Positions 3,911 through 19,480 of a stretch of DNA of 64,000 nt are shown here, piece after piece. The translations under genes were made by a program, and so were the position numbers. Every line of letters begins with the position of its first letter. The stretch's first letter is position 1. A model generated the notes under the pieces. That model worked only from the letters and a program-made list of their open reading frames with translations, did no database searches and was not told where the DNA came from. Source of the DNA: Torpedo marmorata (lineage: Eukaryota); NCBI GenBank assembly GCA_977017645.1, contig OZ360225.1:204042001-204106000 (forward strand). The letters are read 5' to 3'.

Positions 3911-4222
3911 GTATATCTGTCGTCGGGAAAATGTTTGAAGCCATCATTACAGAAGAAATAGCGAGGCATCTAGAGCGAGATGGATCCATCAGGCAGACGC
4001 AAAGTGGCGCTTGTATGACAAACTTACTGGAGTTCATTGAGGATATAACGAGCATGGTAGATAGAGGGGGGCAGATGGATGTTGTTTACTTGGATTTCCA
4101 GAAGGCGTTCGATAAGGTGCCGCATAAAAGAGATATAAATAAGTAAGAATACATAGAGTTGGGGGTGATGTATTAGCATGGATAGAGGATTGGTTAACCA
4201 ATAGAAAGCAGAGAATTGGGAT
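3911..4222 (+). mobile_element. CR1 ORF2 (RT) fragment, part 1 of an interrupted element
   Basis: Encodes CMTNLLEF and DVVYLDFQKAFDKVPH; the sequence resumes at ~10089. Confidence 0.85.
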
Positions 4223-4231
4223 ACAGGGCAC

Positions 4232-4494
4232 TGTGGTAAACCACTGTTATGTGTATTGTGGGCTGGGGATTAGTATGGGCATGTCCTGCTGTCTGTCCCG
4301 GTGGCTCCTCCCCTTTTCCTGGCTGTCCCGGTAACCCCTCCCCCTTCCTCCCCCGAATAAAGGCCCTTGTGCCACTGCTCCGCCCTCAGTCCGGGATAGA
4401 TCAGCAGGTCAACTGTAGCTTCCTTTATAGATAATAAAAGCCGACTGTTCGTGTTCTACTCACCGTCTATTGAGTATTATTGATAGGCCTATCA
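4232..4494 (+). repeat. 5' LTR
   Basis: tgtggtaaac...ggcctatca; matches 8534-8796; AATAAA at 4433-4438. Confidence 0.97.
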
Positions 4495-4517
4495 ATTTTA
4501 TTATCTATAAAAATCTG

Positions 4518-7500
4518 ATGGAGAGCGTCCTGACACCGGACAGGTTGGACATCAATCCTCTAGCTCCAGACGCCGGTAACGCTTTCGAACACTGGCTGCG
4601 TTGTTTCGAGTCCTTCTTAAGGACAATCAAGGTGGAAAGCGAGGATGAAAAACAGACGGTCCTCGTGTCCAGGGTAAGCCCTCGGGTATATTCGACGATT
4701 CTGGATTGCCAAACGTACGTGGAGGCTATGGACTCCTTGAAAAGAATATATATAACGCCCGTGAACGCGGTCTACGCGAGGCACAGGCTATCAACGCGGC
4801 ATCAGCGGCCCGGGGAGTCAATCATCGAGTTTGTCCGAGACATACAGTTGCTGGTGCGGGCGTGCGACTGCAAGACGCTGACGGCAGAGGAACATGCGGA
4901 ACTGCTGGGGAGAGATACGTTCGTCATGGGGATCAGGTCGGTATACGTGCGCCAGCGGCTGCTGGAGCACGCCGACCTGACCCTCCGTACCGCGGTTGCA
5001 ATGGCCCACATGCTGGAGGCCGCGCTGCGGAACTCTGATGCCATGCAGGCGCGCGACCTCCAGCCGGCCTCGTGGTCAGCCCCGTCCCCCAACCCTGCCA
5101 GCGATCTGACCGCCGCCGCCGTCTGCCGCGACCCGATCGCCGCCGCCACCATCCGCGAACTCACCACCGCAGCCGTTAACCGCGAGCCCGAGAAATGCTA
5201 TTTCTGCGGGCTCGAGAAGCACCCACGCAAACGCTGCCCGGCCCGAGACGCGACCTGCTCCAGCTGCGGCAAGAAAGGCCATTATGCAATGGCCTGCCGC
5301 TCTAAGCCGCGAGCGAGTCTGAGCAGCGCCGCGTGCGAGATATGGGAGCGGCCATCTTACCTTCCGTCACTTCCGGCGTCATATTCTCCCATGGTTGCCA
5401 CCTCGTGCGAGGAGTGGAGGCGGCCATCTTTGACACTGGCACTTCCGGCGCCGCCATCTTACAGCTCCACATCATCACTTCCGGCACTTCCGTCGCCGCC
5501 ATCTTGCAGCTCCAGCCGTGACACGTGCGACTCACGGGGGCGGCCATCTTCTTCAGCGCCGGATCAAGATTACGTCCCGACCCTAGCATCCGTCACCCTC
5601 GACCAGAGTGCGCCCCACCAGCTGTCCCGATCCATGATGGACATCCTGGTGGAGGGGCACAAGACCACCTGCCTGTTCGATACAGGCAGCACAGAGAGCT
5701 TCATACACCCGGACACAGTACAGCGCTGTGGCCTAACTACCGAACCGATGGCCATGGCGTCCGGGTCGCACACAACGGACATCCGGGGGGCTTGTGTGGC
5801 GAACATTGTAGTACAGGGAACAGAATATCGGCATTTTTCGTTATTTGTTATGCCTCGTTTGTGTGCGCCGGTATTACTGGGTCTTGACTTCCAGAGTCAC
5901 TTACGAAGTGTCACGATGCGCTACGACGGCCCCCACCCTGCAATCACGGTAGCTAACCACCAGTTCCTTGACAACACGCCTCAGACTACCTGTGGCCTCT
6001 CCACACTTAAGGTATCGCCCCCGTCGCTATTCGCCAACCTGACCCCTGACTGTAAGCCCGTGGCAACTAAGAGCAGGCGATACAGTGCAGGGGACAGAGC
6101 GTTTATCAAGGCGGAGGTGAAGCGACTGTTGCAGGAGGGGATCATCGAGCCAAGTAATAGCCCCTGGAGAGCCCAGGTAGTCGTGGTAAAGGGGGCCAAG
6201 AGCAGGATGGTGGTGGACTATAGTCAGACAATTAACCGATTCACACAACTGGACGCATACCCGCTACCACGAATAGCGGATATGGTGAATCAAATAGCCC
6301 AGTATAGGCTATTTTCCACTATAGACCTGAAGTCAGCGTACCACCAGCTCCCTATCGGTCGGGAGGACCGCACGTACACCGCTTTCGAGGCAGATGGCAG
6401 GCTGTTCCATTTCCTGCGTGTTCCCTTCGGGGTCACAAATGGGGTGTCCGTATTCCAGCGGGAGATGGACAGAATAGTCGATCAATTTAAACTTAAAGCC
6501 ACCTTCCCATACCTGGACGACATCACCATATGTGGTCATGATCGCCAGGATCATGATAACAACCTTCGGAGGTTCCTGCAGGCGGCCAAGGCGCTAAACC
6601 TCACGTATAACAAAGATAAATGCGTGTTCGGGACCACCCGACTCGCTATTCTGGGGTGCGTCGTCGAGAACGGGGTTATTGGACCCGACCCCGACCGTAT
6701 GCGGCCCCTGCTGGAACTTCCGCTTCCCCACACCCCCAAAGCCCTTAAACGATGCCTCGGGTTCTTCTCGTACTATGCGCAGTGGGTCCCTAATTACGCC
6801 GATAAAGCCCGACCCCTTGTCGTCCACCACGTTTCCCCTCCCATCGGAGGCACGTAAGGCTTTTGACCTTATAAAAGGGGACATTGCCCGAGCAACAATG
6901 CACGCGGTGGATGAATCAACATCTTTCCAGGTGGAGAGTGACGCATCGGACTTCGCGCTGGCTGCTACCCTCAACCAGGCGGGAAGACCGGTGGCGTTCT
7001 TCTCACGGACCCTCCAAGGCCCCGAAATTCGGCACTCCGCGGTTGAGAAAGAGGCCCAGGCCATAGTGGAGGCTATTAGGCACTGGAGGCACTATCTCGC
7101 CGGTAAGCATTTTACCCTACTGACAGACCAACGCTCTGTTGCGTTTATGTTCAACACCCAGCAGCGGGGTAAGATCAAAAACGATAAGATCATGAGGTGG
7201 AGAATAGAGCTCTCCACCTACAATTACGATATCCTGTACCGGCCCGGGAAGCTCAATGAGCCCTCCGATGCTCTATCCCGGGGATAGTGCGCCAGCGCGC
7301 AGATCGACTGACTGTACTCCCTCCACTGTGACCTCTGCCACCCAGGAGTTACCAGGCTGTTCCACTTCGTGAAAGCCAGGAACCTGCCCTACTCCCTGGA
7401 AGAGGTCAGGACAATGACCAGCAGTTGTCGGGTCTGCGCGGAGTGCAAACCCCAGTTCTACCGCCCCGACAAGGCACAGCTGGTCAAAGCCACCCGCCCT

Positions 7501-8421
7501 TTCGAACGACTCAGCATCGATTTCAAGGGCCCCCTCCCCTCCACGGACCGCAATGTGTATTTCCTCAATATCATTGATGAGTACTAGCGGTTCCCCTTTG
7601 CCATTCCCTGCCCCGATACTTCGGCCACCTCTGCCATTAAAGCTCTTCGCCAGGTATTTACGCTATTCGGCTTCCCCAGCTATATACATAGCGACCGGGG
7701 ATCAGCTTTTATGAGCGAAGAGCTGCGACAGTACCTGCAGGCCCAGGGCATCGCCACTAGTAGGACCACGGGGTACAACCCACGGGGAAACGGACAAGTG
7801 GAAAGGGAGAACGCCACTGTCTGGAAGGCCGTGCACTTGGCACTCAAGTCCAAGGGACTGCCGGTCTCCTGCTGGCAAGAGGTCCTCCCCGAAGCTCTCC
7901 ACTCTATCCGGTCCCTGCTGTGCACGTCCACAAACTCAACCCCTCACGAACGACTTTTCTCCTTCCCCAGGAAGTCGACCACCGGAACCACCCTCCCTGC
8001 CTGGCTGACGTCCCCGGGACCTGTGCTGCTCCGCAAGCACCTTCGGAGCAGCAAATACGAACCTATGGTCCAGAGGGTGCAGTTAGCCCACGCTAACCCT
8101 CAATACGCCTACGTGGTCTTCCCTGATGGGCGGGAAGACACCGTTTCAATTCGCGACCTGGCGCCCGCAGGAGCGCCGGGAGAAGCCCTCGACATCGAAG
8201 ACCACTTGTCGCAGCCCCTCCCCACCCCCCCCAGCACGTCAGCCCCAGCACCCTCGCCGGTGCCGAATGTGCCGCAAGAAGCCAGGCAGGAGGCAACTCT
8301 GCAGAGAACTAGGCAGGAGACAACCCTGCCATCTCCCCCATCACCACAACCCGCCCCGTCACCGCGGGTACTGCGCAGGTCGCAGCGGCGGATCAGACCG
8401 CCTGATCGGCTCGAACTGTAA
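4518..8421 (+). pseudogene. gag-pol polyprotein (Gag zinc knuckles, aspartic protease, RT, RNase H, integrase), disrupted
   Basis: CYFCGLEKH..C and CSSCGKKGH..C; LFDTGS; YLDD; ESDASD and LTDQ; SIDFKG and HSDRG. Frameshift near 6820; in-frame stops at ~7285, ~7308 and ~7585. Confidence 0.92.
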
Positions 8422-8517
8422 ATGTGAATGTATATATCTGTTTATATCTTCAGTTTTTTTTGCATTTGTATCTTGTAAAATAATCACAGTGGCCACGTCA
8501 CCCTGTTGGACTCTTTT

Positions 8518-8530
8518 AAAAAGGAGGGGT
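8518..8530 (+). promoter_or_regulatory. Polypurine tract
   Basis: aaaaaggagggg just upstream of the 3' LTR. Confidence 0.85.
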
Positions 8531-8533
8531 GAA

Positions 8534-8796
8534 TGTGGTAAACCACTGTTATGTGTATTGTGGGCTAGGGATTAGTATGGGCATGTCCTGCTGTCTGTTC
8601 CGGTGGCTCCTCCCCTTTTCCTGGCTGTCCCGGTAACCCCTCCCCCTTCCTCCCCCGAATAAAGGCCCTTGTGCCACTGCTCCGCCCTCAGTCCGGGATA
8701 GATCAACAGGTCAACTGTAGCTTCCTTTATAGATAATAAAAGCCGACTGTTCGTGTTCTACTCACCGTCTATTGAGTATTATTGATAGGCCTATCA
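8534..8796 (+). repeat. 3' LTR
   Basis: 263 bp; 260/263 identical to the 5' LTR by manual comparison. Confidence 0.97.
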
Positions 8797-10088
8797 GGCA
8801 CTAACTTCTACTGTGATGAAATGCTTTGAGAGGCTGGTCATGGCCAGAATTAACACGTACCTATGCAAAGATCTGGACCCACTGCAATTCGCCTATCGTC
8901 ACAATCGCAGATGCAATATCGCTGGCTCTCCACTCAGCTCTGGATCACCTCGAAAACAACAATTCATACATACGGCTGCTCTTCATCGACTACAGCTCGG
9001 CCTTCAATAACATTATTCCCTCAGTGCTGGTCAAGAAGCTACAAACTCTAGGCCTCTGTACCCAACTCTGCAACTGGATCCTTGACTTTCTCATCGGAAG
9101 ACCACAGTCAAAATGAATAGGAAACAACGTCTCCTCCTCACTGATTATCAACACAGGCGCACCCCAAGGATGCGTGCTTAGCCCACTGCTCTACTTGTTA
9201 TACACCCATGACTATGTGGCCAGGCACAATTCCAATGCCATCTACAAGTTTGCCGATGACACCACAGTTGTCGACAGAATCACAAATAGCAATGAGGAAG
9301 CGTACAGGAGGGAGATAGATCAGCTCGTTGAATGGTGTAATGACAACAACCTTGCGCTCAACGTTAGCAAAACCAAGGAGATGATTGTGGACTTCAGGAG
9401 GAAGTCAGGGGAACATGACCCAGTCCTCATCGAGGGCTCAGTAGTGGAGAGAGTCAAGAACTTCAAATTCCTGGGTGTCAACATCTCCGAGGATCTGTCC
9501 TGGAGCCTCCACATTGATGCAATCACAAAGAAGGCTCGCCAGCGGCTATACATTTTGAGGTGTCTGAGGAGATTCGGTATGTCACCGAAGACTCTCGTAA
9601 ACTTCTATACGTGTACCGTGGAGAGCATTCTGGCTGGTTGCATCACTGCCTGGTATGGAGGCACCAACTCCCAGGACAAGAGTAAACTCCAGAGGGTTGT
9701 TAACTCGGCCTGTGACATCACAGGCACCAGGCTTCACTCCATCGAGGACATCTACATGAGGCGGTGTCTTAAAAAAACAGCCTCTGTCCTCAAAGATCCC
9801 CACCACCCAGGCCATGCCTTTTCACTCTACTACCATCGGGAAAAAGGTACAGGAGCCTAAAGACGAGCACTCAATGGCACAAGGACAGCTTCTTCCACGC
9901 TGCCATCAGATTCCTGAATAATCAATGAACCAAAGACACTGCCTTACTTTTCGTGCACTATTATTTATATGTTTTTATAGTAATGTCGTAAGATGGTTAT
10001 AATTTGAATGTCTGCACTATGATGCTGCCGCAAAAACATCGAATTTCATGACTTGTTCATGACAATAAATTCTGATTCTGATTCTGAT
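8797..10088 (+). mobile_element. Rex1/Babar-type LINE, 5'-truncated
   Basis: [30 protein letters not shown] and KFADD motifs; 3' end aataaa(ttctga)n. Confidence 0.88.
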
Positions 10089-13859: not shown

Positions 13860-14555
13860 AAACCAAGGAGATGATTGTGGACTTCAGGAGGAAATCAGGA
13901 GAACATGACCCAGTCATCATCGAGGGATCAGCAGTGAAGAGGGTCAAGAATTTCAAATTCCTGGGTGTCAACATCTCCGAGGATCTGTCCTGGAGCCTCC
14001 ATGCCGATGCAATCACGAAGAAGGCTCGACAGTGGCTATACTTTATGAGGAGTTTGAGGAGATTTGGTATGTCATCAAAGACTCTCGAAAATTTCTACAT
14101 GGAGAGCATTCTGGCTGGTTGCATCACTGGCTGGTATGGAGGTGCGAATGCACAGGACAGGAAAAAACTCCAGAGGGTTGTTAACTCGGCCAGCGCCATC
14201 ATGGGCACCAGTCTTCACTCCATCGAGGACATCTACAAGAGGTGGTGTCTTAGAAAAACAGCCTCTATCCTCAAGGAACCCCCACCACCCAGGCCATGCC
14301 CTCTTCACACTGCTACCATCAGGAAGGAGGTACAGGAGCCTGAAGATGAGCACCAGTGGCACAAGGACAGCTTCTTCCCCTCTGCCATCATATTTCTGAA
14401 TGGACAATGAACCACAGAAACTACCTCACTTTATCCTCTTTTTTGCACTATTTATTTATTTTGAAATGTAATTTAATGCAATATTTGCACTGTAATGCTA
14501 CCGCAAAACAACAAATTTTGTGACATGTTCATGTCATTAAATTCTGATACTGATT
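13860..14555 (+). mobile_element. Rex1/Babar LINE 3' fragment
   Basis: KTKEMIVDFRR and FKFLGVNIS motifs; (ttctga)-like tail. Confidence 0.85.
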
Positions 14556-15796: not shown

Positions 15797-16421
15797 TCAA
15801 GATTCAATTTATTGTCATGTAATAAAAACAGTGTCATATTACACGAAATTGCCTTTGTCTGCCGTAAGGCAAACAGATTTGCCATCGGCTGTAATTGCCT
15901 AAAGTGCCTCTTACAGTCAGAGAAAGAGAAGCAAAAGAGAGTTCCCCCCGGAGTCACCAAGTGTCCGTGGATTCGCCTCCAGCACTCCCGCAGCCCCCCG
16001 CAGCCACACATAGTCCAGTCCAAACCATCGGCAAACCGAGCTCCAGATCTGAACGTCTGATGTGATTAGGAATCCTTCAGCGCCCTCGGCACCCTCTCGC
16101 ATCCCATACCTGGTACCCCTTCAGCCAGTTTCGAGCCATACTCCAGCAGTCTGCAGCCTGGTGCGAGTCCCTTGACCGCAGTCTCCAGCAGCCCACAGCC
16201 TCTGTGGGTTCCTCGTCTTGAGTCACCAGCAGCCCACCGCCTGTGTGGGTCCTTCAGCCGCAGATCCCCTCACTGGTCTGCCGCCGTGTTCACCGCCCCA
16301 TGGGTCATCTCCTCTGCTTCTCTTTCTCAGATGGGGGTTGCACCAGTCCACCACTTCCCAGGAGTCTGCAACCCCTCAATGGCTGCTGCCGATCATAGGC
16401 ACCGTAATCTTGGGCGCAGAC
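15797..16421 (-). mobile_element. Non-coding LINE-tailed repeat family, 5'-truncated copy
   Basis: Homologous to 25979-26830 and 58126-58931; interrupts a CR1 3' tail (15670-15796 resumes at ~16424). Confidence 0.75.
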
Positions 16422-18756: not shown

Positions 18757-19480
18757 GTTCAAGGTTCAAGGTTCCTTTTATTGTCATGTAATAACACATA
18801 AAAATGTAATATGCAGTACATGATATATTCCACTTTTGCCTGCCATAAGGCAAACAAAGAGTTGCCATGAGCATCGCCCTGCGACCCTAACAATAAGAGA
18901 AAGAGAAGCAAAAGATAGTCCCTTCAGAGACACTAAGTGTCCGTGGATTCACCTCCAGCGCGCCCGCAGCCTCTGCAGCCGCACAGACTCAGTCAGACCA
19001 TCGGTAATCCAAGCTCCATATCTAAACCTCTGATACGATCAGGAAGCCTTTAGCGCCCGAGGCCCTTCAGGCGCCCTTCTTACCCGCAGCACCCTCTCAG
19101 ATCCCGGTTCTGATACCTGGTTCCCATGGGCCATTCTCCAGCAGCCTGCAGCCTGTGTGGGTCCTTTGACTGCAAGTCGCCAGCAGCCCACAGCCTGTGT
19201 GAGTCCCTCGACCGCAAGTAGCCAGCCACCCACACCCAGTGTAGATCCTTCAGCCGCTGAGCCCCTCACTGGTTACCTTCCAAGGAAGTTGTTCCCCCAT
19301 CTCTGGTGCCCTGCACCAGTCCGTTGCTCTCCCTGTTTCTGAAACCCCTCGTGGTACACTGCTCAGATAAGGCGCCCCTATCTTGGGCACAGACCTCCAT
19401 GGTTGCAGTATTAAATAAAAAAACACCCTCGGCTCCTCTAAGAGGCTGTTTAAAGCCTGTACAGAGCCAAAGGCATCAGG
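18757..19480 (-). mobile_element. Non-coding LINE-tailed repeat family, diverged copy
   Basis: Shares the blocks gtgtccgtggattcacctccagcg and agaaagagaagcaaaaga, and the tttattgtcatgtaata tail. Confidence 0.65.

Follow-up and report, generated by a model that had tools for sequence, protein, structure and literature searches.

A conserved LTR–leader duplex suggests self-priming in an animal Gypsy clade outside the chromoviruses

A Ty3/gypsy element of Torpedo marmorata carries, at the position of its primer-binding site (PBS), the complement of a segment of its own LTR, and the pairing recurs throughout the clade to which the element belongs. It is a trait of the clade and not damage of one copy. 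Tf1-like self-priming from the 5′ LTR is the best reading of this arrangement and, as judged from sequence, a probable one. The sequences show a duplex that covaries and keeps a fixed register relative to the LTR end, no TGG, and a clade in a separate position. The feature is real and clade-wide, and the comparative support is strong for self-priming through a predicted cut within the LTR. In the available parts of the literature, Tf1 provides the experimental demonstration of tRNA-free priming, which among Gypsy elements is taken to characterise the Tf1/sushi group.

Architecture of the element

The window, a stretch of 64,000 nucleotides from contig OZ360225.1, contains a Ty3/gypsy element of 4,565 bp (4232-8796). 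Its two LTRs are 263 nt each, with three differences between them. The domain order PR-RT-RH-IN, the TG..CA LTRs and the target site duplication (TSD) are those of Ty3/gypsy (Metaviridae), and the closest solved relative of its RT is Ty3 RT (E 1e-35). The element is composed of the following features.

4227..4231 (left) and 8797..8801 (right), + strand: target site duplication GGCAC, 5 bp, a repeat seen at both flanks
4232..4494, + strand: 5′ LTR, 263 nt, TG..CA ends
4356..4362, + strand: AATAAAG, TATA-like, 32 nt before the initiator-like site; putative promoter element, with the same spacing in four sister families of the T. marmorata genome
4386..4391, + strand: initiator-like site TCAGT, recognised by motif, with the A at 4388 as predicted RNA start
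4424..4439, + strand: LTR arm, the predicted self-primer, whose 3′ end carries the poly(A) hexamer AATAAA (4433-4438)
4440..4443, + strand: RCCT-type motif directly 3′ of the predicted cut; starts a second short stem with partner 4486-4488, just 3 bp in the window copy
4480..4495, + strand: U5-terminal hairpin, a perfect 16-nt palindrome in the window's family (sequence and fold)
4495, + strand: one-base spacer between LTR end and paired site; no Watson-Crick pairing to the arm in 27/27 families
4496..4511, + strand: PBS position, complement of 4424-4439, without TGG (sequence)
4518..6857, + strand: Gag, protease and RT ORF, two CCHC at about 5196-5297; the frame stops early
6598..7287, + strand: RNase H piece in a different frame (ORF and Pfam)
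7588..8421, + strand: integrase core and C-terminus, without chromodomain (ORF and Pfam)
8518..8529, + strand: polypurine tract, followed by 4 nt and the 3′ LTR (sequence)
8534..8796, + strand: 3′ LTR, 263 nt, with an identical arm copy at 8726-8741

The motif at 4386-4391 is a putative initiator. The reading frame of the window copy is broken, a point missed in the earlier note. The two CCHC knuckles and the lack of a chromodomain described there are confirmed: the knuckles are found at aa 227 and aa 247 of Gag, and Pfam finds no chromodomain in the window.

The LTR arm pairs with the leader

The 16 nt at 4496-4511 are the exact reverse complement of LTR bases 4424-4439 (16/16), as first noted from the window alone. 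No TGG-starting PBS follows the LTR end at 4494, and the gag ATG at 4518 comes 23 nt past the LTR end, again as described before. None of 5,000 shuffled leaders matched the LTR over more than 12 nt, versus 16 nt for the real leader.

The duplex dominates the predicted fold (z-score -2.95), with pair probabilities of at least 0.83 for 4425-4438. The earlier note had also placed the primer end at the pair 4439:4496. The duplex is predicted as proposed, but this terminal pair has a probability of only 0.29, so that the exact cut could lie a base earlier. Two features had been overlooked: the arm includes AATAAA at 4433-4438, and upstream of it AATAAAG (4356) and TCAGT (A at 4388) are spaced 32 nt apart.

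A 421-nt junction query of the 6.2-Gb genome gave 3,246 first-look candidates, of which 40 were scored and 30 loci fetched. The same 16 nt are present in 28 of these 30 close loci, the window included; the other two were mis-anchored.

After the polypurine tract, an AA in most cases stands right before the TG of the LTR (8518-8533 in the window; loci L063-L143). This AA suggests a 2-nt overhang at the left end of the DNA, while at the right end a single unpaired base lies between the LTR and the paired site. The cut may be one base earlier than 4439.

Conservation and covariation of the duplex

The comparison included 134 loci: the window, 90 further loci of the same genome found with divergent Gag queries, and 43 foreign loci with enough DNA upstream of Gag (of 85 fetched), which come from metagenome and MAG contigs of animals. 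They fall into 29 families at 85% identity, six of them from the T. marmorata genome. In 27 of the 29 families, perfect pairing extends over a median of 10 nt or more, and the best member pairs over at least 12 nt in 26. In contrast, pairing of 10 nt is reached by none of 108 control positions in the ORF (maximum 9), by 2 of 580 shuffled leaders and by 31 of 812 cross-family combinations of arm and site. Of the two exceptional families, one (L096) pairs at 15 of 16 positions with a single mismatch. The other (L137/L140) is without pairing and has apparently lost the middle of the LTR arm, both ends of which remain. L137 and L140 are the earliest-branching loci of the clade and keep its leader type; they are probably one decayed copy in two assemblies.

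The register of the duplex is fixed. In all 27 representatives, each the best-pairing member of its family with two families dropped, pairing starts 2 nt past the CA of the LTR, the LTR end having been placed near the pairing in loci without a second LTR. Offset +1 is Watson-Crick in none of them. At offsets +2 to +13, 321 of 324 positions are Watson-Crick, versus 218.5 (maximum 246) in 5,000 partner permutations; the variable part, offsets +7 to +13, gives 188 of 189 versus 108 in permutations. With motif-only anchors, which were available for 106 of the 134 loci, the duplex contains 1,213 Watson-Crick, 10 G.U, 8 A.C and 41 other cells, whereas a neighbouring short stem has 14 G.U in 103 cells. 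Among relatives, complementarity is conserved while the letters change (27 of 29 families by the median criterion of 10 nt), the behaviour that the earlier note had sought, and a normal tRNA PBS is absent, none of the 27 representatives showing a TGG at 7 nt or less from the LTR end.

One G-C pair, 4430/4505, is kept in 26 of 27 families while the adjoining pairs vary. It is located 10 nt upstream of the predicted cut on the arm side and 11 nt downstream of the LTR end on the site side, and could be a recognition or positioning signal. A TSD of 5 bp was found at 10 of 15 foreign loci scored and in 16 of 26 own copies scored.

Coupled change of arm and site

A large sister family is polymorphic at one pair of the duplex, which is either C-G or T-A. 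The pattern occurs in 3,338 copies genome-wide, of which 3,236 (by subtraction) are Watson-Crick, 56 are U.G and 46 are CxA. Wobble is not preferred over mismatch (p=0.37). Across 61 copies, LD between the arm letter (-8) and the site letter (+63) is complete. Each state is found on both of two backgrounds defined by markers flanking the site (+34, +76), with C-G/T-A counts of 21/7 and 11/12. The two letters therefore switched jointly on more than one occasion, or travelled as a block past the marker that separates them.

Coupled, Watson-Crick-only change would be expected under self-priming because plus-strand copying of the primer would rewrite the site from the arm. Recopying would predict coupled change free of wobble, while selection on a mere RNA helix would predict wobble intermediates. 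Strong selection combined with recurrent mutation is a possible alternative for the coupled letters. Joint change of arm and site without wobble can serve as a sequence signature in screens of other clades for self-priming.

Discordant copies number 39: 19 lack a readable 3′ arm, 13 have a 3′ arm that pairs, and 7 have both LTR arms alike. The 13 copies with a pairing 3′ arm have changed after insertion. Six of the 7 with both arms alike are U.G, a small hint of tolerated wobble. An LD scan for the end of the strong-stop DNA gave no sharp break at the predicted cut. Two elements (L279 and L312) each combine LTRs that differ in their U5 subfamily, which points to recombination or conversion between copies.

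Lineage and hosts

A FastTree phylogeny of 170 RT segments places the element in a clade of 57 tips (the window, 25 loci and 31 homologs) with a support of 1.0 and a branch of 0.57. Three chromodomain-bearing proxies, which stand in for Tf1 and sushi as these are themselves absent from the tree, fall outside the clade, in agreement with the earlier proposal of a lineage separate from the chromoviruses. RT identity to chromodomain-bearing proteins is 32-35%. No chromodomain was found in 38 aligned clade members or among the 120 near homologs listed, and two CCHC knuckles are present in 67 of 71 full-length homologs. The separate RT clade and the lack of a chromodomain place the element outside the Tf1/sushi group.

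The earlier assignment as Mag-like holds for Gag, but the RT sits on its own long branch (0.57). The best Gag matches outside the clade, P0043 and P0113 (E 1e-15 and 1e-13), stand together in the RT tree; their Mag label depends on the RT motif of P0113, which we take to be Mag-type. The RT branch of the clade joins near tips with the presumed Mag motif at a weak support of 0.75, in a tree without named Mag or Cigr-1 references. Like Mag sensu lato, the clade has two CCHC, a 5-bp TSD, a length of about 4.0-4.5 kb and a single ORF of about 1,200 aa, and it differs in its separate RT branch. The size, the single ORF and the Mag-like Gag of the element fit Cigr-1 of Ciona. The clade possibly belongs to Mag sensu lato, and perhaps to the Cigr-1 clade of Ciona. 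Cigr-1 is filed under Mag in the available part of the PMC6238403 supplement.

A motif search found no labelled clade member in the available parts of the PMC6238403 and PMC11673190 supplements, the accessible text of PMC2774666 holds no passage on Cigr, and the Atlas gives only generic names for the clade. Two named groups were considered and rejected. Troyka has CG..CG ends and a 3-bp TSD according to the accessible text of PMC12440569, versus TG..CA and 5 bp here; Kuafuorterviruses carry IADD/VADD/LADD motifs in the part of their description available, versus YLDD in the element. A pattern search of viral contigs gave 27 matches, none of them related.

Homologous proteins number 2,017, the full-length ones being about 1,200 aa in one ORF. 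The closest are from rays and sharks (RT identity 73-87%), followed by those of cnidarians, a damselfly, Trichuris, a cockroach and hagfish (55-65%). A Gag search of the T. marmorata genome yielded 68,095 first-look candidates, of which 150 were scored. Some clade members (L141-L145, P0129 and P0191) are in bacterial MAG assemblies or have bacterial labels, most likely host contamination.

Proposed self-priming mechanism

In the folded RNA, the arm at 4424-4439 would pair with 4496-4511. A cut just past AAA, at about 4439, probably by the element's own RNase H as in Tf1, would free a 3′ end that could start minus-strand DNA across U5. The resulting strong-stop DNA would span 4495 back to about 4440 and would jump to the RNA 3′ end through roughly 20 nt, from the poly(A) hexamer to the poly(A) site. 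Plus-strand synthesis would then copy the primer, replacing the site with a sequence templated by the arm. The duplex would incidentally hide the poly(A) signal of the 5′ LTR.

Directly past the predicted cut, 22 of 27 families can form a stem of at least 4 bp (null 0.30), the partner strand of which is close to the LTR end in no more than about a third of families. A third duplex as in Tf1 is not seen above the null (6.59 versus 6.68). The 16-nt palindrome at 4480-4495 was considered as the priming element of the clade and rejected; a 6-bp stem occurs there in 6 of 27 families, all from T. marmorata.

Promoter-like motifs suggest where the RNA probably starts. In five own-genome families, the TATA-like AATAAAG and the initiator-like CAGT are 31-32 nt apart, which puts the likely start some 51 nt upstream of the cut (74 nt in one family), or about 35 nt upstream of the arm. 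Contigs from two runs of one sample contained no information on RNA starts or ends. No TATA-like motif was found in 26 families at -58..-36, where a start at the arm end would need one; with a motif list picked after the sequences had been viewed, one is present at -92..-70 in 6 of 26 families, five of these six being own-genome families. An RNA start upstream of the arm would make the primer internal, unlike that of Tf1, and its 35-nt unpaired 5′ part makes the stop point of plus-strand copying a problem.

It is a possible but somewhat doubtful extension that this metazoan-wide Gypsy clade evolved self-priming independently of Tf1, with a primer that is cut inside R and ends in the poly(A) signal. 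If so, one duplex would supply the primer and set the strong-stop end just upstream of the poly(A) site. The duplex would also silence premature polyadenylation in the 5′ LTR, and each cycle would rewrite the site.

Alternative roles for the duplex

The arm that primes might instead come from the 3′ LTR copy (8726-8741) or from a co-packaged second RNA, cut after the hexamer. The 3′ arm copy is identical to the 5′ arm, and with an RNA start at about 4388 the part of R upstream of the cut would still permit strand transfer. Such priming would account equally for covariation, register and Watson-Crick purity. It makes the same predictions for sequence as priming by the 5′ LTR arm, from which it cannot be told apart on that basis. 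However, only 56 nt separate the 5′ arm copy from the site, with which it pairs in the predicted fold at probabilities near 1, so it would take the site first, and Tf1 uses the 5′ copy in the accessible text of PMC7175516 and bioRxiv 2022.12.06.519325. We consider this origin of the primer unlikely. A similarly low probability is given to the view that the duplex serves to hide the 5′ LTR poly(A) signal while something else primes. The partner of the arm lies outside the LTR, so only the 5′ copy would be masked, and in 19 of 27 families AATAAA or ATTAAA forms the end of the arm. In HIV-1, the 5′ poly(A) signal is occluded by RNA structure. However, in the other 8 families the duplex persists although it contains no canonical hexamer, and two of these (L062 and L063) have the hexamer in the loop instead, making masking poor as a sole cause. 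Occlusion requires no fixed +2 start and no avoidance of G.U, and it gives no account of the primer. Masking is plausible as a side effect of self-priming.

Priming at the site by a host tRNA, a tRNA half or another small RNA, with the LTR match being secondary, is very improbable. Half-tRNA priming does occur in copia lineages (available text of PMC6317226), and the tRNA screen was partial, but TGG is absent in 27 of 27 representatives. In agreement with the earlier note's reading of a tRNA-free site, the longest match between the six own-genome leaders and 32 host tRNA genes, covering only 9 anticodons, is 7 nt. Moreover, the six families within this one host differ in site sequence, and each site matches its own LTR. 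Least credible of all, and close to negligible, is chance pairing or a tRNA PBS deleted from one damaged copy. The arm is AT-rich and the window copy has a broken frame, but 28 of the 30 closest loci share the same 16 nt, shuffled leaders do not exceed 12 nt and the trait is clade-wide.

Comparison with known systems

The Tf1 primer is the first 11 nt of the RNA, released by an RNase H cut within a three-duplex structure, according to the available parts of PMC7175516 and of bioRxiv 2022.12.06.519325, the latter on S. osmophilus. Like Tf1/Tf2, Tj1, Tosmo1-3 and the Tf1/sushi chromoviruses, as far as described in the accessible text of these two sources and PMC4600332, the clade has a PBS position complementary to an upstream LTR segment. 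The geometry directs the cut 3′ end into U5, a stem adjoins the predicted cut and a tRNA site is lacking, as in the available descriptions of that group. However, the clade is without chromodomain and its RT clade is separate. The pairing extends over 13-18 nt, versus 11 nt in the Tf1 text available. Unlike in Tf1, the arm ends in a poly(A) hexamer (19 of 27 families), the RNA start is probably upstream of the arm and a third duplex is at null level; the clade is also known from sequence alone.

Self-priming has been predicted for the Tcn1 clade and for the plant Ty1/copia TAR lineage, Houba and Osr-1 (PMC6317226, in the part available). Self-priming outside the chromoviruses therefore has precedent as a prediction for TAR/Houba/Osr-1, likewise made from sequence. 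TAR belongs to another superfamily (copia) and Tcn1 is a chromovirus clade, both being compared here by their description in that text. The fungal GalEa elements also lack a tRNA PBS and have a conserved structure at the LTR end, the Conserved Hairpin Site, but in the available text of PMC5445492 this hairpin lies wholly past the LTR without an LTR complement, whereas the clade described here has a covarying partner within the LTR. Outside most subscription papers and Repbase Reports, the literature searched, which included the available parts of PMC3601003, PMC5371799, PMC8556966, PMC3670739 and PMC13524379, yielded no description of self-priming in a non-chromovirus Gypsy clade.

If self-priming is correct, a second, unrelated Gypsy clade, present in sharks and rays, hagfish, cnidarians, insects and nematodes, would prime itself, and the switch away from tRNA would be recurrent. 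The switch may free such elements from regulation through tRNA supply and tRNA fragments. It would also account for the fact that a family with tens of thousands of Gag candidates in the T. marmorata genome is overlooked by PBS-based annotation.

Surroundings of the element

The element is flanked by two different LINE-like RT remnants, at about 3930-4226 on the left and 8797-9860 on the right (ORF 9117-9860). The left remnant presumably resembles CR1 and the right one Rex1/L2. A second copy of the right-hand LINE is located at about 13860-14430. Short tandem arrays with 32-nt and about 42-nt units occur at 908-1067, 16180-16277 and 19133-19273, and many SINE-like repeats surround the element.
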